This document shows positions 15,369 through 48,475 of a DNA stretch of 64,000 nt, piece by piece. The DNA is taken from the IMG/VR virus record IMGVR_UViG_3300014205_000007, positions 34,090-98,089 of that record. One strand, 5' to 3'. The DNA is from a virus (Duplodnaviria > Caudoviricetes). The position numbers and the translations under genes were made by a program. Position 1 is the first letter of the stretch. Every line of letters begins with the position of its first letter. The notes beneath the pieces are model-generated. The model was not told the origin of the DNA and made no database searches. It saw only the letters and a list, made by a program, of their open reading frames with translations.

Positions 15369-16466
15369 CTACTCAGGGGAATCGCTCATCCCTTGATGCT
15401 TGCGAAGATAGTCCGCCGCGCGACGCATCAGTTCTGGATCATCGCGCAATTTACCGATGCCACGATTACAGGCACCGCAGAGAAGCTGGCGAACCTTGCC
15501 AGTCCGATGGTCGTGATCAACGGATAGCCACCGCAGTTTTCCGTTCTTCATTTCAGTCTCAGGACTGCGGCAGATGGCACACTTACCATCTTGTTCGGCA
15601 TGCATGCGGTCATAATCCGCCAATGTAATCCCAAACGCTCTCAATAGCGCACCATTGCGCTCGACCTCCGGGAAGGCAATCCGCCGCGCGCGGTCGTAAG
15701 CCCTTTTACCCTCTGCGCTAGTGGCCGCGCCGAGAGTGCGGTGCATGGTCTCTTCCCACGCCCAGTTCCCTGGCCCGATAGGAAGCTCGACGTTAATGGG
15801 GACCAACCTCGTATTAAGCCGGAACCCAGAACGCTCGATGTCCCTCTCGAAATCCTCCAAAGAGGCCCACCCGACATGCCCCAGCGCCCGCGCAACCGTC
15901 CCCGCCCAAAGGCGCCGCACATTAGATGAGACGCGGTAAGTCTCTCTGCGTTGCGGCGCGTCAGGGTTGTCCTGCGGCAGAGCGGCGTAGTGTTTGCGGG
16001 CTTTGTTGCACGCCTCAATCGCTTCAGCCTTAGTGCGGAAGCGCCCAACGGCAATCTGCTTGTAGTTCACAGTTATCTTGGCGAACCACTTCTTTTTGGT
16101 CTTGTCCCAAGACACGCCAGCGCCGCGATTGCCCTTGTAATGTTTACGTGTCGTTTCCGCTGGCGTGAGCAGCTTCAGGTTGGCAAAGCGCAGATCAAGG
16201 TAATCCCCGTTCTTCGGAGATATGTTGTGCTTCGGCCATTCGCCGTTGACATAGAACCAAGCCAAGCGGTGAGCCAAATAAAGGCGATCATCTACCTTGA
16301 TGTACTTCCGACCATTCGCCGCAACCGATCCAGGATCGCGTGCGAACGATGCTGGCCGCGCAGTCTCACGATCCTTCCAAGCGAAGGCGCCAGCTGATGG
16401 ACTGTAATCCAGCAGCTCTTTCAGGCGTTGATGTGAAACTGCGTTTTCCACGTTCTTCCTAGTCAT
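15369..16466 (-). CDS. free-standing homing endonuclease: degenerate HNH + AP2 + endonuclease VII domain
   Basis: YLAHRLAW HNH scaffold; GVSWDK...WFAKI...GRFRT (AP2); QDGKCAIC...VDHDH...LLCGACN (EndoVII). Start at 16466 after GGAG. Confidence 0.85.
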   Translation of the reverse strand: MTRKNVENAVSHQRLKELLDYSPSAGAFAWKDRETARPASFARDPGSVAANGRKYIKVDDRLYLAHRLAWFYVNGEWPKHNISPKNGDYLDLRFANLKLLTPAETTRKHYKGNRGAGVSWDKTKKKWFAKITVNYKQIAVGRFRTKAEAIEACNKARKHYAALPQDNPDAPQRRETYRVSSNVRRLWAGTVARALGHVGWASLEDFERDIERSGFRLNTRLVPINVELPIGPGNWAWEETMHRTLGAATSAEGKRAYDRARRIAFPEVERNGALLRAFGITLADYDRMHAEQDGKCAICRSPETEMKNGKLRWLSVDHDHRTGKVRQLLCGACNRGIGKLRDDPELMRRAADYLRKHQGMSDSPE

Positions 16467-16497
16467 CCGTAAATCTCCAATTGATGCCAATTCCTCT

Positions 16498-16526
16498 ATT
16501 GTAGAGGCGCCGATTGGAGATGTCCA
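16498..16526 (-). promoter_or_regulatory. sigma70-like promoter of the endonuclease gene
   Basis: TGGACA-N17-TACAAT. Confidence 0.65.
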
Positions 16527-16536
16527 GTGCATTTAG

Positions 16537-16603: not shown

Positions 16604-17515
16604 TCAAGACGCTGGCGTTGACGCCCAGATGCACCTTGGATCGTTGTACGTACTGATGTAGCGCTCGTACCCCTTAATCAGCACGTTGTCCGTGTGGTTG
16701 TCCACCCACATATCCGTCTCGAACGGAATGCGCTCCATCATCACGAGGCCATCGATGTTGGTCTTGATGAACCAGGCATAGGGTGAGGTCAGGTAGTCGT
16801 TGATCGTGTATTCGCGGATACCGGCCGGCATTGACAGGACCGCGTTGACGGTGTTGTTTGCCGTATCGGGCTGCAATTCCGTCTTCATTAGACGTTCTGC
16901 AACTGCGGTGAGCTGTACCGGGACAACCAGCTTCTGAGCCCTGGCATTGATCTTGAGGCCGGCTTCATCCACGAACTGCGCGCGAATGTTCTGGCATGCC
17001 TGGATCAGGGCCGTTTCCGTCAGATCGAGCTGAACGGAGAAGGTATTGGCCCAAGTACCCCCATCATATGGATGCGCAGTGGACGAAAGAGGCACCGCAT
17101 CACCGCCGACCGTCGGATCGTAGGTAGCACAGTTGTTGAGGACGTTGGCCGACTGGATTTCCTTGAACTGATTGAATGAGTTTGCCAAGGGGAGCTTCAT
17201 AAGATTGAAGTCCTTGACGTACTGGTTGTCGTCCAGCGATTCACGGGTGATCGAGTACCCCAATCCAACCTGGAAGGGCTGGGCATTGTAGATGTAGCGC
17301 TGGCCCGAGTTGTTATCGAATGCCGTGGCGCCGCCTTCCGTCTTGAGCTGGGCCAATCCAAGAATACGCATCTGCGCCTTGGATTCAACTCGCAGCGTTG
17401 CCTTATGGACGGTAAAGAGGTCGCTCCACTCCTTGGGAAGCTGCTGGTATTCGCCAGCAACGTCGTAAAGGCCCGGCAGGAGCAAGGACTTGATTTGTGC
17501 GGTATTAACAGCCAT
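16604..17515 (-). CDS. major capsid protein (Mu gpT-like family)
   Basis: LLLPGL, KTEGG, LGYSITRE, DAVPLSSTAHP, KLVVP, AWFIKT, KGYERY motifs; 303 aa after the decoration gene. Confidence 0.85.
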   Translation of the reverse strand: MAVNTAQIKSLLLPGLYDVAGEYQQLPKEWSDLFTVHKATLRVESKAQMRILGLAQLKTEGGATAFDNNSGQRYIYNAQPFQVGLGYSITRESLDDNQYVKDFNLMKLPLANSFNQFKEIQSANVLNNCATYDPTVGGDAVPLSSTAHPYDGGTWANTFSVQLDLTETALIQACQNIRAQFVDEAGLKINARAQKLVVPVQLTAVAERLMKTELQPDTANNTVNAVLSMPAGIREYTINDYLTSPYAWFIKTNIDGLVMMERIPFETDMWVDNHTDNVLIKGYERYISTYNDPRCIWASTPAS

Positions 17516-17576: not shown

Positions 17577-18212
17577 TTAGGTGCCCAGCGAGCCAGTGCC
17601 AGAGAGGTTCGGCTGCACGAGAACCCAGTTGTAGGCGCCCGTTGCCGATCCAGAGTAGGGACCGTTGGTGCCCGGCTGAATGCCCAGTGCCCCACCTGCA
17701 CCCGGAAGACCGCCGTAAAGGCCGATGATCCGGAACGGCAGCGTGGCGGTGTTGGCGACACCCGAGAGATAGGCCCCAGACTGGCCGGTCTGCACGTTAC
17801 CCGTGCCGATGGTGATTTCTGCGTTGAGGCCGATGTCGGTGAAGGCCACACCAGTGCCATCCGACTGGACGAGGAATACCGATCCGGGGGTGACGGGGAT
17901 GATCTTGGCCACGATGGTGCTCTGCGCCGTCGAAGCGACATCGGCACCCGGCCAGAAGTTCGAGGAGGTCATCTTGCCCTGTGCGGTGGAGAGATACTCC
18001 ACCCCATCGAAGATGCCTGCCAGCTTGGCGATGCCGTCGGCGGCGGCCCACTGGGCAATATAGCCGGTATCGAGAACCTTGATGGGGTCGCCGGTAAAGA
18101 TTTTGGTGGTGTCGTTGTAGGCGATGTTCTTCGGGATCATCTGGAAATTGGACGGCGCCCCGACGGCAGAAGTCTGCTGGCGGAGGCCGAAGGGAGCATT
18201 GATGTTTGCCAT
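17577..18212 (-). CDS. capsid decoration/cement protein
   Basis: MANINAPFGLR...IFTGDPI...GIFDGVEY; immediately upstream of MCP. Confidence 0.65.
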   Translation of the reverse strand: MANINAPFGLRQQTSAVGAPSNFQMIPKNIAYNDTTKIFTGDPIKVLDTGYIAQWAAADGIAKLAGIFDGVEYLSTAQGKMTSSNFWPGADVASTAQSTIVAKIIPVTPGSVFLVQSDGTGVAFTDIGLNAEITIGTGNVQTGQSGAYLSGVANTATLPFRIIGLYGGLPGAGGALGIQPGTNGPYSGSATGAYNWVLVQPNLSGTGSLGT

Positions 18213-18547
18213 GGATGGGGCGCCCAAGTTTGCCTTGGCTTGCCCTTTGGCCCGATGCGCGAGCTGTCAAGGATTCCTTGACAGTTGGACAGCGCAAGAC
18301 AGACGTGGGGAGCGAAGCCAAATGAATTGACCTGTCGGCGCACCACGCCTACGATAAAGGTGATGCCGACGCTCGCTCCCCTCTTTCGACTCAACCGCCC
18401 CTGGCGGTGGGAGAGTAAATTCCCGATCACATCGCGTGATGGGTACGCCTCAAGAACTGCGTGTGAATTGAGTTAATGCCGATTGCCCAGTGATTCGTCA
18501 ACAGGTATGATTGGGCTCAAGGGGCATTCAGAGTACAGGAAGGCAGA

Positions 18548-28390: not shown

Positions 28391-31024
28391 TCAGTTCACA
28401 GTATAGGTAAATGGCGGTAGTCTTGACGCATCGTACACTGGCCCACCCACTGACTTCTCTTGTGGATCAGGCTTCTGTTGAACGATTTTCAGCAACGCTT
28501 CGGCAAGCTCTCCAAGCGCTCGGTGATAGAGTTCCCTCTCTGCCTGCGACTGGTCATCCGCATCGACCTTACCGCCCATAGCCATTGATCCACCCTGGCC
28601 TTGACTTTTGGCTGGGGTGATTAGCCCGGACATCTGGTTCAACTGCTGGTCTACGATGGGGTCAGCGTCTGGGTGAACACCGACTGTCTGGGCGACCTTC
28701 AGAGCTTCCACCGAGAGTTTGGTCTCTCGGTTCTGGTGTGAATCATAAGCCTTGAAGGCCATCTCCTGGTCCTTCTGGCTCAACTGCTTGCTCTTCAGTG
28801 CGAGTAGGGCTTCCTGGTTGGGATCGGACTGGGGCAGAGCCGAGGAAGCCTGATGCGCGATCTTCGATGCTTCGATATTTTCCTTGGAGGCCAGTTGATC
28901 CTTTTTGAGTTGTGTGTCACTCTCGACTTTCTTGGCCGAAATTTGCAACTGTCCCTGCTTGGTCTGGCTATCCAGCATTCTGGCCTGCGCCGAGATCATC
29001 GCAGCAACGGCCTTTGGATCGGGTGGCGGCTGGCCCTGTTGGGGAGCAAAGTCGGACTGTATATCATCGATCTTGACCATCGAGGCCCAGCGGGAGACAA
29101 CCCTCTGCATATTGAACACGCCCGGCATTTGCATGGCGGTCTGCAGGTAGGTGTTGGCTTTGGCCAGCCGGTGAATGTGCGATGGAACGTTGGGATCGGA
29201 GGCAGGAACGATCTCGCAATTCTCCAACGCCTGCTTGAAACGCTCCACCCGCTGTTTGTGGGCGGCGGCTACCTGCTCCTCTGTGGCGCTTTTCCCGGCC
29301 GGGATAACACCAAGGGCTGGACGTTTGTTGTCGCGCCACAGGGATTCGGGGTCTTCCTTGAACAGCTCCTGGAAAAGGCTGAACTCCTCTTTCTGGGCCG
29401 CATGGAAGGACTTGTGGACCGAGCTTTCCACCTTGGTTGCCTGCTCGATAGCCGCCAGAACAGAACCTACGGGAGTATTCTGTACTCCTTCCCCGACCGG
29501 AACCTCGGCCGAGCCTCCGAGCTTGGTTCCAACCTCACGCAAGGCCCCCATAAGAGACATCAACCCTGGGGTTACGTCCTTATAGGGGAGCGCCATGATG
29601 GCGTCCTGGATTCTCCCCCCTTGCGCTCCGGTGATATCGACGGGAGCCAAAGTTCCAGGAGCGACGCGGATTTCGTTGGATAGCTGTCGGGTGGCCCCCT
29701 TGGCAATCAATCCGCCGGGGAAGTTGGCGAACATGCCGGCGTCGATCCCCTCGCGAACCAAAGCCGTCAAGGCCATGGTGATATTGCCGAGGATGTGCAG
29801 AAGTCCAATTCCGTAGATCCCCGCAAATCCTGCCGTGACATAAGGGAAGGCAACAAAGGGAATCTTGGCTTGCACGTTGCCGTTCTCAAACCCCGGATCA
29901 CCCTCGCGCCAGTTGCGGCGGATTTCGAGGATGGTGCGGCTGTCCTTGTCAATGGTCACACGATAGGGAAGAGGAATTCCGGTCGGCTCGCCTTTCTTTC
30001 CGCCCCCTTCCAAATGCTCGAACCCTTCCAGGTCGAGCGCGCAATAGCACTCATATATGGTATAGGTCTGGTCCTCCTGCCGTTGTGGCTTGGCGTCCAA
30101 CCCTGCAACATCGGCTCGTTTGACATCGAGCACGTTGGGGGCTGAGTTGGGCGTCGTCAAGGATACGTCGCGATAAACCCCCATCTTCTGCATGATACGC
30201 ATCACCCGCTGATCCATATCGATCTGATGCGTGACGCGGGGAGCGTTCTTGAGGTCTGTGGCGTTGGACGGTATAATCAAATCCGCCCCATCGACGCTTT
30301 CGGACACGGGGCGCTGTCTCAGTGGGCAGCGATAGACCTTCTTAAACATCCCCGAGGCATAGACCGTCATTCCCAGCATGTTTCTGGTATCGGGGTAATA
30401 CTCGGAGGCCGTATTGGTGAAGAAATAGTTATAGTCCTTCTCCAGCTCTTCGGCCAGCTTGTCGTTGTCGGTGGTTTCATCGCCGTAGTTGACGGCCTTG
30501 CATGGTCCTTCACTCGGACACAGCTCGGCATAGGCTGTGGCTTGGGCGTTCAGAACTGCATCGAGGAGGATCGGATCGCGCACCCGCGACATGCCATCGA
30601 GTGGGGCCGAGCTGGCCCCGACCGACCCGCCAGGTCGTTCCAACTTCAACCCGAGAAGGTCGATGCCTTCGGCACGTTGGTTGATCCAGTCGGCGCGGTC
30701 GCGTTCGTCCTCATCGATGGCATCGAGGAGTGATCCTGCCAGTCCTCCGAGGATACCGTTCTCAATGTACTCGGCGAGATTGTCATCAAACTTAGTCGAT
30801 TTTGGGAGAGGTTGGGGATTGAAGTCGATGATGACATCCCCGTCCTCGCCGGGAATCTCCACCGCCCCTGAAAGCGGATCGACCGATGGAGCGCCCACCC
30901 CGTCCAGTTGCACGTCAATCGATACGTCGGCATCGGACAGGAAGGGCGGAATACCTCCGATGCCTCCACCGTCTGCTTTGGCTGCGGATGACTTGCTCTT
31001 TTTGGTAGCTTTGGACTTGGCCAT
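28391..31024 (-). CDS. portal protein
   Basis: 877 aa; FDDNLAE, GMFKKVY, PYRVTID, ILEIRRNW, LIDAG-like GIDAG, LPYK; coiled-coil C-terminus; downstream of terL. Confidence 0.85.
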   Translation of the reverse strand: MAKSKATKKSKSSAAKADGGGIGGIPPFLSDADVSIDVQLDGVGAPSVDPLSGAVEIPGEDGDVIIDFNPQPLPKSTKFDDNLAEYIENGILGGLAGSLLDAIDEDERDRADWINQRAEGIDLLGLKLERPGGSVGASSAPLDGMSRVRDPILLDAVLNAQATAYAELCPSEGPCKAVNYGDETTDNDKLAEELEKDYNYFFTNTASEYYPDTRNMLGMTVYASGMFKKVYRCPLRQRPVSESVDGADLIIPSNATDLKNAPRVTHQIDMDQRVMRIMQKMGVYRDVSLTTPNSAPNVLDVKRADVAGLDAKPQRQEDQTYTIYECYCALDLEGFEHLEGGGKKGEPTGIPLPYRVTIDKDSRTILEIRRNWREGDPGFENGNVQAKIPFVAFPYVTAGFAGIYGIGLLHILGNITMALTALVREGIDAGMFANFPGGLIAKGATRQLSNEIRVAPGTLAPVDITGAQGGRIQDAIMALPYKDVTPGLMSLMGALREVGTKLGGSAEVPVGEGVQNTPVGSVLAAIEQATKVESSVHKSFHAAQKEEFSLFQELFKEDPESLWRDNKRPALGVIPAGKSATEEQVAAAHKQRVERFKQALENCEIVPASDPNVPSHIHRLAKANTYLQTAMQMPGVFNMQRVVSRWASMVKIDDIQSDFAPQQGQPPPDPKAVAAMISAQARMLDSQTKQGQLQISAKKVESDTQLKKDQLASKENIEASKIAHQASSALPQSDPNQEALLALKSKQLSQKDQEMAFKAYDSHQNRETKLSVEALKVAQTVGVHPDADPIVDQQLNQMSGLITPAKSQGQGGSMAMGGKVDADDQSQAERELYHRALGELAEALLKIVQQKPDPQEKSVGGPVYDASRLPPFTYTVN

Positions 31025-32170: not shown

Positions 32171-33940
32171 TTAGCGTAGGTAATCCCCTGCTACAGAGTT
32201 CGTGCTCGGTCTCTGCCTAGCGAGGTCTTCTTCCTCTAGGGCGCGTTCCTCGCGGCGAATGGCAATGTTTGTATCCCGCAGATGACGCAACGCCATGACA
32301 ACCGCGTCCACCACGTCGTCATGCTGGCCTTTTGGAAAAAGGCCCATATCCACAATCACGTCTTGCGCCCAATCTCTCCATACCCACGCCTTCAGATCGG
32401 GACCACACTGCTTGCAGTGCGTCTTGCCGTGCATAGAGCACACCCATCCACCAGGAGCATACACCATTTCATCGGTAAAAATGTCCACGACCGAATGAGC
32501 GCGCGACCACTTATCGCCTCTGGCAGGAACAAGTCTGGTGCCCCACGAAGAGTTAGCGTACAGTCGCTTCAGTTCCGCCGCCACGTCGTGCCCCCGAGCG
32601 GAATCTTCAATCAACAGCCTGTCCACCTTGCGCTTGGAGCAAGTAAAATTCACCCATTCGGTCAACCCCCATTTGGGAGCACATCGCCGTAGGTACGCGC
32701 GCTCATCCTCATCGGGATGACGCTGAACACGCTCCCCATGCAAGGGGAGTCGCTTCTTCCAAGCGTCCACCATCATCAGGCAACGATTGCCTGTCTTTGG
32801 ATGGTCGTAAGCTGATATAACTACCAACGCCGAATAGTCGTTGTGCTGTTTTTCCTTGAACGCCGTATCCACGGAGGCGAGGGTGAATATGGGAATGAAG
32901 TCATAAACTCCGCTTAGTGGAACCTCGTAATACTGCCACCAATCTTCCTTGAATAGTCCTCCGCCACGCGGGGACGGGCGCTGCTGGTACTGTCCGGCCC
33001 ACAGATATGAGTTCGCCTTATAAGACTCCAGGACATTTGCTGGATACCGATCCTCCCAGGCCAGTTCGCCATCGTATTGGCGAGGGTCTTGGCCGTCGTT
33101 CCATCCCAAGTAATGGGAGAAGTGCCGTCCAGACTCGTACTCCATGGGGATAACAAGGTGACAATAATCCTTCGGAAGATGCTTGCGAATCTCCCCGCAA
33201 GCATCGTCCTCATAGAGGCGCTGCATGATAATCACGATAGCATCGCGACGCAGATCGTTCAGGCGGTTCTGCATCGCTTCTCGGACCCACGTCGTTACGT
33301 TTAGGCGTGCTTCCGGGCTCTCTGCTGTGCCCTTTAGGGCGTGGGGATCATCGAGAATGACGCGATGCCCGCGAATACCCGTTCCGACCGACCCAAACGA
33401 CGAAGCCAAACTTGAGCCCGTCTTATCGTTGGTGACCATAATCTTTCCGTCACCAACGACGTTGAATACATGCCCCCACATCTCCCGATAAGCTTCGGAG
33501 CAGATCAAGTCTCGGAATTTGGCGTTATCGCGCTCGGTGAGAGTCGGAGAATATGAGAACGAAACATACCGCAAGTGCGGCAGCCCCATAGGACCCCATT
33601 CCCATGCCTTCCAGAAGACTTGAACGCATAAGCTTTTCATAAACCCCGGCGGCACATTTGCCACGAGGCGATTGAGAGGCTTTTCTTCACCGTCTATGTT
33701 AACGATTTCACTGCCGGTGATAGCCTCTAGGTGAGCGCACAGGCATTCTAACGGCCACCCATCCACAAATGGGTCAACTGGCTCCAGAACGTGCCAGAAA
33801 TAGCGGATGAACTCCATCAGCCCCCCGTAGGGGTTGGACTGGCGCTTTCGCTCCTCCCTCAGGTACTTTTCTTTAAGCGCCTTTGCGTATTGCTCTTTTA
33901 AGGCCCGCGGACTGGCACCTGAGGGTGCGGGTACGTCCAT
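32171..33940 (-). CDS. terL: terminase large subunit
   Basis: NVPPGFMKSL Walker A, VILDDPH Walker B, IMQRL, GQYQQRP, SVDTA, HDDVVD nuclease residues. Confidence 0.93.
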   Translation of the reverse strand: MDVPAPSGASPRALKEQYAKALKEKYLREERKRQSNPYGGLMEFIRYFWHVLEPVDPFVDGWPLECLCAHLEAITGSEIVNIDGEEKPLNRLVANVPPGFMKSLCVQVFWKAWEWGPMGLPHLRYVSFSYSPTLTERDNAKFRDLICSEAYREMWGHVFNVVGDGKIMVTNDKTGSSLASSFGSVGTGIRGHRVILDDPHALKGTAESPEARLNVTTWVREAMQNRLNDLRRDAIVIIMQRLYEDDACGEIRKHLPKDYCHLVIPMEYESGRHFSHYLGWNDGQDPRQYDGELAWEDRYPANVLESYKANSYLWAGQYQQRPSPRGGGLFKEDWWQYYEVPLSGVYDFIPIFTLASVDTAFKEKQHNDYSALVVISAYDHPKTGNRCLMMVDAWKKRLPLHGERVQRHPDEDERAYLRRCAPKWGLTEWVNFTCSKRKVDRLLIEDSARGHDVAAELKRLYANSSWGTRLVPARGDKWSRAHSVVDIFTDEMVYAPGGWVCSMHGKTHCKQCGPDLKAWVWRDWAQDVIVDMGLFPKGQHDDVVDAVVMALRHLRDTNIAIRREERALEEEDLARQRPSTNSVAGDYLR

Positions 33941-33979
33941 AAGTAGCCACCCCCCTCAGGTTACTTACGATTCACTTAT

Positions 33980-34444
33980 CTAGTGTCTCGTGGATAGCCC
34001 AAGCTCTTTTTCAAGCTGCTTCACAACGTCGTCCAGTTGTTCGTCGGGCATGTGGGAGAACTCACCAACATCGCCTGTTTCCACCTGCTTAATATAGAAC
34101 CTGCGCAATTCTCCACGCTTTACCTCCGCCTTAATCGCAGCGTCGTACTTGCCCTCTGCCTCTGCCGCCTTACCCAAAAAATCCAGCCTCTCCATGTGCG
34201 CTTCGAGGGTCAGCAATCCACGCGCATCGGCCTGTATCTGAATCCTTTCCGAGGCACGCTCCAGCCCAAGGGTAATCATGGGGCCTAAAAGCTCATGCTT
34301 TAGAAGCTTTTGCACCTCGCTATCGATGGCCGCATCGGACATTTTCTCGGCGTCGTACGCCAAACGATACGCCTCTCTGCCGTTCTTCTTGTTGAGGTAC
34401 GCAATACGGAACGCCTCCTGCTTTGGGGTCAGCTTTCTTGCCAT
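33980..34444 (-). CDS. terS: terminase small subunit
   Basis: LTPKQEAF...AYRLAY HTH; directly upstream of terL. Confidence 0.8.
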   Translation of the reverse strand: MARKLTPKQEAFRIAYLNKKNGREAYRLAYDAEKMSDAAIDSEVQKLLKHELLGPMITLGLERASERIQIQADARGLLTLEAHMERLDFLGKAAEAEGKYDAAIKAEVKRGELRRFYIKQVETGDVGEFSHMPDEQLDDVVKQLEKELGLSTRH

Positions 34445-34464: not shown

Positions 34465-34779
34465 TTACTTGCTCTCGCCCTTCAGATACGACTCGAATTC
34501 TTTGGCAGCGGACAGAATGTTTGCAACGCTGTCAATGTCGCTCAGGTGTTCTGCAAGCTCAACGGCATGCTCCAAGGCAATACGCCTGCACTCTACGTCT
34601 GATAGTTCGTAAATTTCCATGCTTACTTCCCTCCACGCCAAGAAGTCCTCACCCTTACTCCATCGAACTTCTGTAGGATCGTAACCTACACCAGTCGTGG
34701 GCATCAGATAGACCGTTTTCACTGCTTTCTTGCCATCCACTACGTTGACTTCCTTATCTGGCAAACTGCCTGAGTTCAT
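34465..34779 (-). CDS. hypothetical protein with C-terminal helical RxxALE...A..F..YL domain
   Basis: CRRIALEHAVE...ILSAAKEFESYL. Confidence 0.5.
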   Translation of the reverse strand: MNSGSLPDKEVNVVDGKKAVKTVYLMPTTGVGYDPTEVRWSKGEDFLAWREVSMEIYELSDVECRRIALEHAVELAEHLSDIDSVANILSAAKEFESYLKGESK

Positions 34780-35713
34780 CGAGACTCATAAAAGCTGTTG
34801 GCATCCCTTCTTTCTTGAGAAGCAACGGGAAGGCCCCTTGCGCAACCTTAAAATCTGGAACAGAAGCATACACCTGATCTGGGAATGCAGTGAAACAATA
34901 TCTCTCGTATGACTTAACGAGAATATTGCCCGTAGCCTTGTCGCACCAAGCATCAAGCTCGAACGGAATGCGCTCCATCCGAAAGAAATTCTTCCTTCCC
35001 GTGAGAACAAACCACCCCCGCTCACTGGGAAGCGCACCCCACGATGTGACCGGCAACGGGCTGATACGCTCCGCTTCGTCGCTGATGGATGGATGAACGA
35101 CTAAGACGGATGCCTGCTGCCCACAAGAGGCGTGCCAATCGATAGCCCTCTTAATTCCTTCCAAGCTGAGGTCATCGGTATCCTGGATGCCCGGTCCGGG
35201 CGCCCCATCAATCGACATCCACAACCTGGAATTATGAACAGATACAGCGCCCATGGCGTCCCTTGTGGCCCTGTGTGCCGCAAACAGCCCGTCTCGTATT
35301 TCAATTGCCTGACGCACAATGGCTCTATTGCTTACGTTGAACCGAATACACGATCCAAGCCCTACCTGAAAAGGGAGTGCGTTATAGACTGGACGCAGAG
35401 GTGTGTAGCGATCCTCTGTTAGCTCTCGATCCGTGTAATTCGGGTCAGATGACACCTCTTGGACGCTGAGAACGGCCCTGCGTGTGTCGAAGAGCTTATC
35501 ATTGACGCCGGAAAGTGCCTCGCGAGCCATTCCCTGGCTCACTGGCAGAATGGCCCCACGCACGGCGTCCAGCCTGCGACGCATAGCAATGGGCAGCGCG
35601 TTGGGATCGTCGCCATCCATCGACACTACACTCGCCTTAGCCAAGGCAGGCGCGCTGACGATTGCCGCAGCCGCTATTGTACCGAACGATCTGCGCGTAA
35701 TTGCCATTGCCAT
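34754..35713 (-). CDS. major capsid protein paralog with N-terminal twin-arginine (Tat) signal peptide
   Basis: ITRRSFGTIAAAAIVSAPALAKA; colinear matches to MCP such as YNALPFQVGLG and MERIPFELD...NILVKSYERY. Confidence 0.8.
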   Translation of the reverse strand: MAMAITRRSFGTIAAAAIVSAPALAKASVVSMDGDDPNALPIAMRRRLDAVRGAILPVSQGMAREALSGVNDKLFDTRRAVLSVQEVSSDPNYTDRELTEDRYTPLRPVYNALPFQVGLGSCIRFNVSNRAIVRQAIEIRDGLFAAHRATRDAMGAVSVHNSRLWMSIDGAPGPGIQDTDDLSLEGIKRAIDWHASCGQQASVLVVHPSISDEAERISPLPVTSWGALPSERGWFVLTGRKNFFRMERIPFELDAWCDKATGNILVKSYERYCFTAFPDQVYASVPDFKVAQGAFPLLLKKEGMPTAFMSLDELRQFAR

Positions 35714-35753
35714 TAAGACTTCACCCCAGTGAAAGATAGAAGGGATCTACGGT

Positions 35754-36281
35754 TCATGCCTTTGTCTCATCATTCGTTACCTCTGGCCACTCTGGCTGCT
35801 TATCGGTTCTGGCCATTCTAGCGTAGCATTTAACCGTAATGAAGCGGTGATCCACCACACCCCAGATATCAGTTGTATGATCGATCTCTGCGCGAGATTC
35901 GATAATCTTTCGCGCCTCTTCGTTGCTGTTACGATATTGCTCTCGGGTAGCGACCATCTCGGTGAATATGCGTGGCTCCCACACGTCGTGCTCAAATTTG
36001 TTCCGCCAGTACATGGTCCCTTCGGTCTTGCTCAGGTACGCTTTGACTTGCTCTCGGACGTCAAAGGCGCAATATGCTTCAGCGAGAGCGCGATCAAACG
36101 GCTCATTCCTGCACGTATATCCAGAAGCAAATTCGACGTATGGAACCCCCTCGCAAACCACGCGACATTGCGGCCCATCGGCTTGTTCAGGAATCGACTT
36201 GAGCCAATCAGATACATCCTGAAACGTTTGTCGCGTCCCAGGGTACTTCATGGATGCAACCGCTTTGAAATTGCCTGTCAT
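35754..36281 (-). CDS. hypothetical protein
   Basis: likely start MTGNFK after GGAAGAGG; MYWRNKFE, VKCYARM. Confidence 0.5.
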   Translation of the reverse strand: MTGNFKAVASMKYPGTRQTFQDVSDWLKSIPEQADGPQCRVVCEGVPYVEFASGYTCRNEPFDRALAEAYCAFDVREQVKAYLSKTEGTMYWRNKFEHDVWEPRIFTEMVATREQYRNSNEEARKIIESRAEIDHTTDIWGVVDHRFITVKCYARMARTDKQPEWPEVTNDETKA

Positions 36282-36652: not shown

Positions 36653-36859
36653 TTACTCCCCTAGATACTTCAATTTCGGCAGGCTCACCTTCACCTCTCT
36701 GGTTGCCTCTACCCTGGCTAGGTTCATGGCGAGGTGCTGCTTTCGGCTGATGGGACGGTGACCGTATTGCTTGCGCTTAGCCATGACCTTGATCGGGCTC
36801 GCCGACTTGATGAAATCAAGCTGGTCCTCTACGTCCTCTTGCGTTGTTCCAAATGGCAC
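36653..36859 (-). CDS. hypothetical protein ending VSLPKLKYL
   Basis: in operon; shares its C-terminal motif with the neighbour. Confidence 0.45.
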   Translation of the reverse strand: MPFGTTQEDVEDQLDFIKSASPIKVMAKRKQYGHRPISRKQHLAMNLARVEATREVKVSLPKLKYLGE

Positions 36860-36862
36860 GAT

Positions 36863-37082
36863 TTACTCGTTCTCCATGAACTTGAGCTTAGGGAGGGTGA
36901 GGGGAACATCCCTCATGGCATCAGATCGCTCAAGCGCCTTTAATCGCTGATCTCGCGCATCTGGGGGCCTATTCAAGCCGATTCTATTCAGGTGTATGGT
37001 TCTCAAGCCCTTGTTGAGCTTGAAAATCTCACACCGCTCCTCGCCTTCGTGATCTTCCGTAAAATCAGAGACGTCCGACATG
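36863..37082 (-). CDS. hypothetical protein ending LTLPKLKFM (start approximate)
   Basis: likely start MSDVSDF. Confidence 0.4.
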
Positions 37083-37083
37083 G

Positions 37084-37500
37084 CTAGTTCGCCGTTTGCC
37101 CAAAATTGCCGCAATTGACGTAGTCGCCGCCTCCGCCACCCCAAATCGAGCGCACATTGCCAGAGAGCTTCGAGGCTTCATCCCGCCCCAATGCCGCAGC
37201 ACGACACTCTGAAAGACGATTGTTGATGTACCCCTCACCCAAAACAACGCCAGATTCAACCAACATCTGGCGGCGACTACGGATATGGTCCGTCTTTGCT
37301 TTACACGCCAGGGCGCGGGCCAGCTCCAGGACTTGCATCTTCTCAGCCTGTCCGAGATGGGCGTAGAGACTGTCCATCCTCTGTGAGCGTTCCAGGAGGG
37401 CCAGGTCGTCGATGTCGGAGTTCAACTGCTGTAGGGTGACGTTGGCGTTGACGAGCTGAGATGGGTTCATGCGTCTTCCGGGAGTTGTAAACGCACGCAC
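37084..37500 (-). CDS. hypothetical coiled-coil protein
   Basis: in operon; likely start MNPSQL. Confidence 0.45.
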   Translation of the reverse strand: MRAFTTPGRRMNPSQLVNANVTLQQLNSDIDDLALLERSQRMDSLYAHLGQAEKMQVLELARALACKAKTDHIRSRRQMLVESGVVLGEGYINNRLSECRAAALGRDEASKLSGNVRSIWGGGGGDYVNCGNFGQTAN

Positions 37501-43706: not shown

Positions 43707-44870
43707 TTAAGCTGCTTCCTTGCCTGCGACGCTGGCTTGCCCGATATGCGGGGCGATGAAGTGTAGAATAGAAGCGTCTTTAACCGATCTCAAAAGGATA
43801 GGGCGCCCCTGTTCTGGGAGCATGGAGATTGAGATTTCCTCGTTATCAGGCCAGTCGGCCAAGGATTCCTCTAGGAAATGCTTATTGACGTGAAAGCTGC
43901 GCTGCGCGTCGAGAACTTCCGCGTCGATCTCGTCTCTGGCGTCGTCGAGCTTTCCACCTCCGGCCGATACAACCATGCCATCTTCTTTCAATTCGACATG
44001 AACGGTCTGGTATTTGCTCAGTCCGGTGGAGTAGACAACACAGGTGCGTTTCACCGCTTCTTTCAAAGCTGATGGATAGACCTTTGCCACCTCAGAACTA
44101 TTGACCATGATGGCTTTGAGGTGCTGCTCGTATTTCTCGTAAGCCTGACCCATGATCTTGGTGGTGAAGAGCATATCGGGAGTTTCGATCTGAAACAACG
44201 ATCCGGCCCTGACAGTGACGTTGGCGGCGCCTAATTGGCCAAGCAGGCGAAGAACCTCTGGCACGGCATCGGTGGGAACTGTGGTTGGCTTGAGTGTTTC
44301 TGCCCCATTGGGAAGCTCCGCCAATGCAAGTGCCATGCGTTTGGAATCGAACCCAACCGCTGCCAGCTTTCCATCCTCACGGGGATGAAAATGCACCCCG
44401 TATAGCCCCGGCTGCCCCATGATGTTCTTGGATGCGGCATAGTGTGTGCGCCCCATCAATTTGGCAAGGACATCAGCTCCGATGGAGAATTCTATGGCGT
44501 CGCTTTGCACCGCGGCAATGCTGGGAAAATCTTTGGGCTCCAATACCGAAAGAACGGATTTGAAGTGTCCCGACGTGACGTGCAGCCGCGATCCCTTCAA
44601 TTCAAACCCCACCTGAGCGCCTTGGTGCAGGTTTTCGGCGATCTCACAGAGAATTTTGCCTGGGACGGCCACAGACCCGTCATGGTCCATTTGGGCTGGG
44701 GCGGAGGCGGTTGCCTCGCGCTCCATATTGATCCCCGACACAAACAGAAACCCGTCCGACGCACGCAGAAGAACGCACGACAAAATCGGCATCGTGGACT
44801 TATCGGGGACGCACCCCTTCACCGTCTTGAGGATCTTTTTGAGGTGGATGGCTTCAATGACAAATCTCAT
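43707..44870 (-). CDS. dnaN: DNA polymerase III beta sliding clamp homolog
   Basis: STMPILSCVLLRA, GSVAVPGK, DFP, LYGVHF, AVGFDSKRMA, FTTKI; ~387 aa. Confidence 0.85.
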   Translation of the reverse strand: MRFVIEAIHLKKILKTVKGCVPDKSTMPILSCVLLRASDGFLFVSGINMEREATASAPAQMDHDGSVAVPGKILCEIAENLHQGAQVGFELKGSRLHVTSGHFKSVLSVLEPKDFPSIAAVQSDAIEFSIGADVLAKLMGRTHYAASKNIMGQPGLYGVHFHPREDGKLAAVGFDSKRMALALAELPNGAETLKPTTVPTDAVPEVLRLLGQLGAANVTVRAGSLFQIETPDMLFTTKIMGQAYEKYEQHLKAIMVNSSEVAKVYPSALKEAVKRTCVVYSTGLSKYQTVHVELKEDGMVVSAGGGKLDDARDEIDAEVLDAQRSFHVNKHFLEESLADWPDNEEISISMLPEQGRPILLRSVKDASILHFIAPHIGQASVAGKEAA

Positions 44871-44875
44871 GGAGC

Positions 44876-45406
44876 TTACTCCCGTGGACCATAAGCTATG
44901 GTGGCTGGGCCATCGTGGCGCCAATTCCACACGTAGAAGGCGTGATTAAAGGACGGAGACTTTTCTCCTGGAAACCAAACGACGCGCTTTAAAAAGACCA
45001 CCTTCTTATACCACGCTGGGTGATCGGCAAAAAGATGCGCCCGCGTCTTGGCGCTATCAAAGTCTATCCTTAGAAGCATTGCCACCATGCCGCGGCAAGG
45101 CTCCATGAGATCAAGCGCGTGCTCGATGAACTCTTGTGCCATATTATAGGGCGGATTTGTGATGATGGCTGTTGCCTCTCCAGCGCTTTTAAAGTCGAGA
45201 AAATTATCGCCGTTAACGGCGTCCGTCTCCACGACCTCAAACCCGTTGCGCCGCAAAACATCAGACATTGCGCCCCCGCCAAATGCTGGCTCCCAGCACT
45301 TCCCGCCGACCCACGGCAAATGCCCCACCAAAGTCTGCGTGCACCAACTAGGTGTCGCGTAAAAGTCGTTTTCCTTGCGTTCGTATCCGCTGGCCCTCTG
45401 GCTCAC
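44876..45406 (-). CDS. DNA adenine methyltransferase
   Basis: DFYATP, WEPAFGGG (SAM binding), IITNPPY. Confidence 0.85.
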   Translation of the reverse strand: MSQRASGYERKENDFYATPSWCTQTLVGHLPWVGGKCWEPAFGGGAMSDVLRRNGFEVVETDAVNGDNFLDFKSAGEATAIITNPPYNMAQEFIEHALDLMEPCRGMVAMLLRIDFDSAKTRAHLFADHPAWYKKVVFLKRVVWFPGEKSPSFNHAFYVWNWRHDGPATIAYGPRE

Positions 45407-47041: not shown

Positions 47042-48475
47042 TCATCGCGAATAGCTCGCATTCCTAAGTGCATTCGCTCCAACGTCCACAAAGGCGTCGA
47101 TGATGCCAACGCGGCCGTTACGGTTCTTGTCCACGGCGATCTCTATCTTGTTGCAAACCTGCTCAAGCATGTTCTGCCTAGCCTGCTCTGCCTCCACCTC
47201 GTCATAGCGTTGCTTTTCAAGATAGTACGCCGCCCGGTAGAGAAACATCACAACCGATGCGTCTTCCTCAATAGCGCCTGATTCGCGCAAGTCAGCCAAA
47301 CTCGGGCGCTTGTTTTCCCTGCCTTCGACCCCTCGATTTAACTGGCAAAGCCCAATGACAGCAACGTCTAAATCTTTGGCCAGCGTTGCCAATCCATCGG
47401 ATATTTCCGCCAGCTCGCGGTGTCGCATACCTTTGTAGCGGTCGGAGGCTCGCACCAAACCGATATGGTCCACGACAACCAGCCCCAGAGGGGTTCCGTC
47501 CTTTGAGAGCTTACCCGCAAGCTTCGTTGCGCGGGCGATAATATCAGCAACAGTGAGCCCGCGCTGCTCTTCAATGTGGATGGGTAGTGTTTTGAGCCCC
47601 TCGTAAGCAGTTCTTAGCCTGGATATCCCCCGCTCATCCACACGCCGCATGGCGATGTCCTCGTAATTTATCGGCTCACGGTTGGTGTACGCCATGTCCG
47701 ACAGCAGGCGAGCGCCCAACTGCTGGTCCAGCATCTCCAGCGAGAAAAATGCCACTGGATACCCGGCTTTTGCCGCATACCGAATAGCCGAAACAGCAAA
47801 CAAACTTTTCCCCATCCCAGGCCTTCCGGCCACGATTGACAATTGCCCCTTGGGCCAGCCGCCTATCATCTTGTCAAGATCGAGCAGCCCCGTTGTCGGA
47901 TTATCCAGAGCGACAGCCCCTTCTAACGCCTTGAGGGCAGAATCCGCCGCCTCGGCGGCAAGGTAGCTACGCCGCTTCCCCGTCCGCATAGAGGCCATGA
48001 CCTCGTCAACCTGCATCATGGCTGATTGCGCCAAGTCGGAAACGGATTGATACCCGGCGCCGGACCCAAGGGTAAGCTCTGATCCGATCAGAGAAAGCCT
48101 GCGCCGCTGGGAGGCGTCCAAAACTGTTTCAATAGCGTCGGGAAGCGATATCAACCCAACGCGGTACAGGTTTTCCTCGATCAGCCGGCGCAAATAATCA
48201 CGAATGGTCACCGTTGGGGCAACCTCGCTATCTCCGATTACCGCGCAGACAGCCTCAATCGATGGTTTTCGCCCCTCCCCATGCAACCCCAGAAGTACAT
48301 CCATGATGCGATAGTGCAAGCTGCCGTCAAAGTCATCGGCCGTCAGTTTTTCAGAAACGTCAGCAATGGCGTCAGGCTGCACAAGACACGAAACGATAAC
48401 AGCTTTTTCATAATCGTTGCTGTATGGGTCAGCCGGAACTGGGTCCAGCGTTTGAATGCGGATTTGCGGTCTCAA
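47042..48475 (-). CDS. dnaB: replicative DnaB-family helicase
   Basis: VAGRPGMGKS, FFSLEM, VVVDHIGL, LCQLNR, RPSLADLRESGAIEEDA, KNRNG. Confidence 0.95.
   Translation of the reverse strand: MRPQIRIQTLDPVPADPYSNDYEKAVIVSCLVQPDAIADVSEKLTADDFDGSLHYRIMDVLLGLHGEGRKPSIEAVCAVIGDSEVAPTVTIRDYLRRLIEENLYRVGLISLPDAIETVLDASQRRRLSLIGSELTLGSGAGYQSVSDLAQSAMMQVDEVMASMRTGKRRSYLAAEAADSALKALEGAVALDNPTTGLLDLDKMIGGWPKGQLSIVAGRPGMGKSLFAVSAIRYAAKAGYPVAFFSLEMLDQQLGARLLSDMAYTNREPINYEDIAMRRVDERGISRLRTAYEGLKTLPIHIEEQRGLTVADIIARATKLAGKLSKDGTPLGLVVVDHIGLVRASDRYKGMRHRELAEISDGLATLAKDLDVAVIGLCQLNRGVEGRENKRPSLADLRESGAIEEDASVVMFLYRAAYYLEKQRYDEVEAEQARQNMLEQVCNKIEIAVDKNRNGRVGIIDAFVDVGANALRNASYSR

Follow-up and report, generated by a model that had tools for sequence, protein, structure and literature searches.

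A second major capsid protein homolog with a twin-arginine leader, encoded before the terminase genes of a large tailed phage

IMG/VR virus record IMGVR_UViG_3300014205_000007 is the 98,089-bp genome of an uncultured tailed phage (Duplodnaviria; Caudoviricetes), with direct terminal repeats, which is rated complete and originates from a landfill metagenome. We analysed a 64,000-nucleotide stretch of this record, bases 34090-98089, hereafter termed the window, and number all positions from its first base unless a contig is named. On the minus strand, before the gene of the terminase small subunit (terS), the window carries a 319-codon open reading frame (ORF) that is a divergent paralog of the phage's own major capsid protein (MCP) and that begins with a leader of the type recognised by the twin-arginine translocation (Tat) system of bacteria. 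Tailed-phage capsid proteins are textbook cytoplasmic assembly proteins. The paralog gene and its parts, the small gene that follows it and the canonical MCP gene are located as follows.

34754..35713, minus strand: coding sequence of the MCP paralog bearing the Tat-type leader, 319 aa, identified from the ORF list, MCP homology and HK97 fold (stop codon TAA at 34756-34754)
35721..35727, minus strand: Shine-Dalgarno (SD)-like GGGGTGA, read from the sequence, 7 nt before the ATG at 35713
35633..35713, minus strand: predicted Tat-type signal peptide, residues 1-27 (n-region MAMAI, TRRSF motif, h-region GTIAAAAIVSAPALA, c-region ALA-KA or AKA-S, the hyphen marking the possible cut)
35681..35698, minus strand: twin-arginine motif T-R-R-S-F-G, residues 6-11 (the RR of 11 homologs falls at residues 4-7)
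34853..35581, minus strand: HK97-fold core, residues ~45-287 (spine helix 129-160; E-loop region 84-110 and segment 165-175 shortened and poorly modelled)
35345..35395, minus strand: conserved strand block RPVYNALPFQVGLGSCI, residues 107-123, matching MCP residues 73-89
34853..35032, minus strand: conserved C-terminal block, residues 228-287, with MERIPFE and SYERY, from BLASTP to the MCP
34757..34852, minus strand: C-terminal extension, residues 288-319, absent from MCPs in the alignment
34465..34779, minus strand: small downstream gene, 91-104 aa, likely start GTG 34740 behind an SD-like AAGGAAG, no Pfam or PHROG match
16604..17515, minus strand: canonical MCP, 303 aa, PF10124 and phrog_371, of the family from which the paralog derives

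The first-pass annotation had placed this ORF upstream of terS and outside the capsid operon, and it indeed lies about 300 nt before terS in the same orientation, outside the head module and 18 kb away from the MCP gene. Because the SD-like AAGGAAG of the small downstream gene overlaps the stop codon of the paralog, the two genes are probably translationally coupled. The GC content of the paralog (0.51-0.57) resembles that of its flanks and indicates a native composition; a promoter and terminator scan around the gene returned nothing usable. In two groundwater metagenomes from separate studies, short contigs match the window with 100% identity at 33938-34088, 35128-35337, 35564-35777 and 35789-36046. 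They match parts of the paralog gene, the leader included (35564-35777), and show no variants. The paralog sequence is therefore not an artefact of one assembly, and the occurrence of the phage, or of a near-identical strain, extends beyond the landfill sample.

The ORF had been described as colinear with the MCP and shortened in several internal segments, and both points were borne out: all of the quoted peptide pairs are present and in order, and alignment confirmed the shortening. Residues 228-287 of the paralog match MCP residues 242-301 with 47% identity over 60 residues (BLASTP E 2e-14). With this C-terminal block removed, the YNALPFQVGLG block still stood out from 500 shuffles (z=5.9); the other quoted blocks are not significant singly (z 0.2-0.6) but are colinear, and both the fold and the family alignment back them. 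The YNALPFQVGLG block has 12 residues in common with the MCP but only 1 codon, so the similarity is old and has been kept at the protein level; a recent gene conversion of this block was considered and rejected on the same count (1/12 codons identical). A 21-nt run coding for MERIPFE is identical in the paralog (~34960-34980) and the MCP gene (~16720-16740), although synonymous sites are otherwise saturated; either chance or a small patch of gene conversion could account for it. The window paralog matches no Pfam, PHROG or NCBIfam family, including the MCP profiles PF10124, PF25209, PF05065 and phrog_371, and some family members match such profiles weakly.

An AlphaFold2 model built on a 26-row family alignment (pLDDT 73.8, pTM 0.73) placed 207 of the 319 residues at pLDDT≥70. 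Its confident core consists of the spine helix 129-160 and the C-terminal sheets, and its weak parts are the leader (1-29), segment 165-175 and the E-loop region 84-110, which is shortened and falls below pLDDT 50. The C-terminal extension is modelled with low to moderate pLDDT, with helices at 295-299 and 311-318, and ends in an L-x-E-L-type helix common to the family members P0002, P0003 and P0004. Foldseek matched the model to the HK97, D3 and T5 MCPs with probability 1.0 (E 5e-8 to 3e-6) and to encapsulins also with probability 1.0, and VIA-align gave Z 12-13.9 for 192-226 aligned residues over residues 45-287; both searches returned solely HK97-type MCPs and encapsulins. An ESM Atlas model of the paralog superimposed on an MCP cluster with a TM of 0.60. 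We conclude from these matches that the paralog is a near full-length HK97-fold protein with trimmed loops and a 32-residue C-terminal extension. The HK97-type fold on which the first-pass annotation had staked its reading was thus predicted, at Z up to 13.9, and, together with the BLASTP match, upholds its description of a near full-length MCP paralog. A predicted complex of the MCP with paralog residues 29-319 scored 0.29, against a mark of 0.32, and speaks neither for nor against an interaction. When solved structures were searched by sequence, none was found for the leader-bearing family and one weak match was found for the MCPs.

The paralog N-terminus reads MAMAITRRSFGTIAAAAIVSAPALAKASVV, and its leader, MAMAITRRSFGTIAAAAIVSAPALA-KA, is made up of TRRSF, a 17-residue uncharged stretch and ALA-KA. 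T-R-R-S-F-G-T at residues 6-12 is a motif of the S/T-R-R-x-F-L-K type. The h-region SFGTIAAAAIVSAPALA (17 aa, mean Kyte-Doolittle value 1.65) is followed by a lysine, with ALA-K or AKA-S as possible cleavage sites. When the whole 98-kb genome was scanned for RR followed by an uncharged hydrophobic run, the paralog was the sole match at the start of a gene-sized ORF, the others being short out-of-frame ORFs or internal sites. The arginine pair lies at residues 4-7 in 11 of the 12 family members, as [S/T/D]RR, with S or T before it in 10 of the 11, and the leader of P0003, for example, reads MTDDISRRDLVKGAAIGAAAVAVPLDAALA. Two of these genes had seemingly been called without the pair; translation from an upstream ATG preceded by a G-rich site restores it, giving MTEVDRRELMVG in the phage of contig L024 and MADDISRRDLVKN in L028. 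In all 11 leaders the RR is followed by 13-23 uncharged residues of mean Kyte-Doolittle value 1.2-2.2, a charged residue and small-x-small sites at residues 25-35.

Four of the eight leaders tested, that of the window not among them, passed the curated TIGR01409 cut-off of 16.7 bits (24.2, 23.1, 20.1 and 19.8 bits), one passed the PF10518 cut-off of 22.7 bits with 25.3 bits, and two matched the Rieske-type PF10399 weakly. A start of the window protein at Met32 or Met44 is unlikely because a conserved segment served by an SD site would be lost. The TRRSFG leader is accordingly neither a chance resemblance nor the product of a mis-called start, and the doubts raised with it in the first-pass annotation, an RR absent from homologs or a true start downstream, found no support. 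By sequence, these leaders have every element of a cleavable Tat signal, passed on within a single gene family.

An exhaustive phmmer (HMMER) search of 1.84 billion representative proteins gave 21 matches, MCP-type proteins among them, and those most similar along their length all start with a twin-arginine leader; about a dozen related metagenomic proteins keep the design. In a maximum-likelihood tree of 27 proteins, all leader-bearing proteins group with the leaderless P0010 in a single clade (100/100), whose neighbours are the MCPs of the window and L024 phages, from which we conclude that the design arose once, by duplication of the MCP of this lineage. The L024 phage, known from an 85.9-kb contig, carries both genes, with a canonical 305-aa MCP about 22 kb downstream of its paralog. 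That paralog consists of 39 aa of leader and linker and a full-length MCP-like body, which shares 34% identity with the MCP of the L024 phage from MCP residue 4 onward. The N-terminal motif of the MCP (xxLLPGL) has given way to leader and linker; the N-arm, like the E-loop, serves capsomer contacts in shell subunits. One subclade (P0002-P0004) has lost the E-loop segment outright. Between the window and L024 phages the MCPs are 53% identical and the terS proteins 56%, whereas the paralogs share only a 53-aa local match. The duplication is old, and the paralog has a much higher rate of evolution than the MCP.

The first-pass annotation had further proposed a capsid mimic; that such a mimic tracks the phage's own MCP was not supported. 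Identity between the window paralog and its own MCP is 26.0%, as against 22.8-24.8% to foreign MCPs, and for the L024 paralog it is 36.2% to its own and up to 37.6% to others. Concerted evolution with, or mimicry of, the phage's own MCP was rejected, no alignment column being shared uniquely with it. Other searches extended the family little. A word-indexed single-sequence search of 5.8 billion clustered proteins returned the paralog itself only, and the corresponding profile search returned the paralog, one leader-bearing relative (P0013) and two ordinary MCPs. A tblastn search of cultured and deposited phages gave matches to MCP C-terminal parts only, and IMG/VR scans with the paralog and two alignments found canonical MCPs and no further leader-bearing copy.

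In five loci (the window, L024, L026, L028 and L003) the paralog gene sits a few small genes before terS. Synteny is otherwise loose: three small genes upstream of the paralog in the window are downstream of it in L024, and no partner gene is conserved across the loci apart from terS and these three genes of differing order. In L028 and L003 only, a DUF6197 gene precedes the paralog and is translationally coupled to it. At L033:9561-10873 the gene of the leaderless P0010 shares 4 nt with the end of another gene, which encodes a 147-aa single-pass membrane protein, in a neighbourhood of early or accessory genes encoding RecT, LexA-like, Acb2/Tad1-like (L033:7692-7955), outer-membrane beta-barrel and GapR-like proteins. 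Upstream of the paralog in L028, the contig that carries P0002, a partial gene (L028:1-372) ends in the C-terminal MCP block (HMM E 3e-28), and a 182-aa ORF (L028:1799-2347) is weakly similar to the N-terminal part of the MCP (E 8e-4).

The position before terS in five loci, the fast divergence and the deletion of the E-loop in a subclade suggest that the paralog is not a capsid builder in the usual sense. We lean, if only slightly, towards the view that it is a re-purposed capsid fold which the host Tat system sends to the periplasm or the inner membrane, export being deduced from the leader; for the window copy the leaning is no stronger than this, since no other leader of the family is as eroded. 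In such a scheme a cleavable Tat signal peptide would have taken the place of the extreme N-terminus of the MCP in an anciently duplicated, fast-evolving copy. The protein would be expressed in infected cells, from the array of same-strand genes leading into terS and the terminase large subunit gene (terL), and would fold in the cytoplasm, where the host TatBC receptor would recognise T-R-R-S-F and the mildly hydrophobic h-region. It would then cross the inner membrane and be cut after ALA or AKA, and a capsid-like domain of about 290 residues would be freed in the periplasm of a Gram-negative host or stay associated with the membrane there. The exported domain would build no capsids, the old fold serving instead an envelope-side task. 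A Gram-negative host with a periplasm, probably a proteobacterium, is suggested by an H-NS-family gene of the phage and by the hosts of cultured phages with related MCPs, those of the MCP relatives being Proteobacteria and cyanobacteria.

Several observations weigh against export of the window protein. Its leader matches neither PF10518 nor TIGR01409 even at E≤10, the sole profile matches being faint ones to the signal-peptide ends of YbiJ/BhsA, and it has G-T where the Tat consensus has L-K. No TatA gene was found in this genome. The terminal branch of the window paralog is the longest in the family, at 3.13 changes per site against 0.5-1.35 for the others, and this length, together with several internal deletions, means that the window copy may be drifting. 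P0010 has lost its leader and yet persists in the clade. Finally, we know of no task for a capsid fold in the periplasm.

These points bear differently on three other explanations. The leader might serve as a handle for docking at the membrane or at TatBC, with the domain held at the cytoplasmic face as an anchor, poison or decoy and perhaps letting a bound partner hitch-hike out through Tat. There the capsid-like domain would meet the MCP, the scaffold, procapsids or a capsid-sensing host defence protein. We regard both the docking and such encounters as unlikely, if well worth keeping in mind. Conservation of the leader fits docking equally well, the two best-kept blocks are core strands common to the MCP, and uncleaved Tat signal anchors exist in Rieske proteins, whose profile PF10399 is the one weakly matched by two of the leaders; moreover the leaderless P0010 is coupled to a single-pass membrane protein and lies near the Acb2/Tad1-like anti-defence gene. 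However, small-x-small sites follow a proline-ended h-region in 11 of 11 leaders, as fits cleavage, and once such a leader is inserted the positive-inside rule places the body outside. Moreover, the paralog shows no tracking of its own MCP, the conserved N-terminus of the MCP is gone from it, and a copy that bound its own MCP would damage the phage's own assembly.

That the window gene is instead a decaying remnant of the leader-bearing family, with no selected function left, we hold to be improbable. The long terminal branch, the internal deletions, a leader failing both Tat profiles, the absence of any Pfam or PHROG match and of any close relative among the 5.8 billion clustered proteins, and a paralog GC3 of 0.57, below the 0.62-0.72 of the MCP, portal and terL genes, would all agree with decay; but the 319-codon frame is intact, with its SD and a coupled downstream gene, the RR, h-region and AxA site are all retained, the residues at pLDDT≥70 lie in the HK97 core, and the 12 residues of the YNALPFQVGLG block persist despite saturated codons. 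Least probable, in our view, is an ordinary minor capsid component at the vertices or near the portal, whose N-terminus would be an assembly or maturation leader merely resembling a Tat signal. MCP paralogs at special capsid positions are known, T4 gp24 being an MCP paralog that forms the vertices, and both the near full-length HK97 fold and the strand, shared with the structural genes, would suit such a role. It is difficult to reconcile with the passing of curated Tat cut-offs by 4 of 8 leaders, with an n/h/c architecture complete in 11 of 11, with a gene separated from the head module by 18-22 kb in the two phages that allow the comparison, with an E-loop deleted in a subclade and with evolution far faster than that of the MCP.

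If the paralog is exported, its task might be to exclude superinfecting related phages by binding virion parts that dock to the shell, namely ejection or core proteins, as they cross the periplasm. This is a guess, and we consider it doubtful; it is the most coherent one because only ejection and core proteins both touch the capsid shell and later cross the periplasm. In its broadest form the proposal would be that a clade of large phages with SU10-type portals exports a folded copy of its shell protein, either to capture the ejection or core proteins of incoming kin or to carry competitor capsid subunits out through Tat, and to this we give little credence. If true, capture or hitch-hiking would amount to a new kind of exclusion between phages, one that makes use of a structural protein. 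Envelope-located proteins for superinfection exclusion or receptor masking are known from phages: T4 Imm and Sp, T5 Llp, Cor of phi80 and N15, and P22 SieA. The likeness of the paralog to these is one of possible mode only, the known proteins being envelope-directed, fast-evolving, non-structural and encoded outside virion modules. They use Sec or lipoprotein signals or transmembrane helices, and none has a capsid fold; the paralog gave no PHROG or Pfam match, and neither its sequence nor its fold showed a relation to the known exclusion families.

Among proteins of the same fold, the closest counterpart is the phage's own MCP (of the PF10124 Mu-like_gpT / PF25209 Phage_capsid_4 type), to which the paralog is homologous and colinear, with the same fold and with a family that branches within the MCP lineage. 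The paralog differs from it in having a Tat-type leader in place of the MCP N-terminus, shorter loops, a C-terminal extension, a position before terS and faster evolution. Encapsulins are, tied with phage MCPs, the best structural matches (Z 13.5-13.9) and likewise re-use the HK97 fold outside virions, some of them having first been reported from culture supernatants. However, they are cytoplasmic cargo shells without signal peptides, encoded in cellular operons with their cargo genes, whereas the paralog is phage-encoded, nests among phage MCPs and has no adjoining cargo gene. The likeness is in fold only, no encapsulin Pfam or NCBIfam family matching the paralog. The capsid-fold proteins of satellites (Ccm of cf-PICIs, and the P4 Sid/Psu context) and T4 gp24 offer a parallel as second capsid-fold genes with a role distinct from the main shell, and a cf-PICI capsid is among the fold matches (9gyi, Z 12.6). 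These proteins act in the cytoplasm during assembly and lack an export signal, whereas the paralog belongs to the phage's own genome and carries a Tat-type leader.

The leader itself resembles bacterial Tat signals (TIGR01409/PF10518; TorA, NapA, formate dehydrogenase) in its [S/T]RRxΦΦK motif near the N-terminus and its Ala/Gly-rich, mildly hydrophobic h-region. The c-regions of the paralog family are basic or acidic, with an AxA site, and homologous leaders pass the curated cut-offs, that of the window being too diverged for the profiles. Here, though, the passenger is a virus shell protein and not a cofactor enzyme, and the leader is inherited within one phage gene family. The first-pass annotation knew of no described system of this kind, and full-text literature searches, which found no paper on a capsid homolog bearing a Tat signal, agree with it. 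What this analysis adds is a full-length case whose parent MCP is in the same genome, a further genome that holds both genes, a single-origin tree, a paired comparison of rates and a negative test for tracking of the own MCP. An HK97-fold shell protein behind a Tat signal in a conserved family would mean that the fold has been recruited to the cell envelope, or that the Tat receptor is used in a way not yet known. As the window case is full-length with its parent MCP in the same genome, and as a second phage has both genes and the origin is single, it is directly testable.

Nearly all genes between window position 1 and ~55,000 lie on the minus strand. Along the direction of transcription, a helicase and a sliding clamp gene are followed by about 9 kb of small unknown genes, the paralog, the small coupled gene, terS, terL and the portal gene. 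Beyond the portal the order continues with an H-NS-family gene, a 216-aa protein, the MCP, an HNH/endonuclease VII gene and large ORFs, presumably tail genes. No tRNA genes were found within the window.

47042-48475, minus strand: DnaB-type helicase
43707-44930, minus strand: sliding clamp
33980..34444, minus strand: terS, phrog_1595 and phrog_51, 56% identical to terS of the L024 phage
32171..33940, minus strand: terL, 589 aa, phrog_38 (E 7.7e-65)
28391-31024, minus strand: portal, 877 aa
19899-20012 (G000:C1:53988-54101), minus strand: gene encoding a DNA-binding domain of the H-NS family (PF00816, 62 bits), upstream of both the scaffold-like gene and the MCP gene
17577-18227, minus strand: 216-aa protein, scaffold-like gene upstream of the MCP
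15369-16532, minus strand: HNH endonuclease fused to an endonuclease VII domain, 387 aa, immediately downstream of the MCP

The MCP of the window is 54.8% identical to the annotated MCP in MW202675. The HNH/endonuclease VII fusion beside it may have to do with homing. An H-NS-family gene occupies the same place in the L024 phage (L032:10541-10870), and L033 also has one. Upstream of the paralog, the adjacent minus-strand genes at 36653-36859 and 36863-37144 are small paralogs of each other, sharing 45% identity over 31 aa and a common C-terminal motif (...LPKLKYLGE / ...LPKLKFMENE); their homologs in the L024 phage lie on the opposite side of the capsid paralog. The terL protein of the L024 phage (L024:12917-15646, equal to L030:2655-5384) has 909 aa, as compared to the 589 aa of the window terL, and contains a LAGLIDADG domain, a segment that by its sequence looks like an intein or a homing insert.

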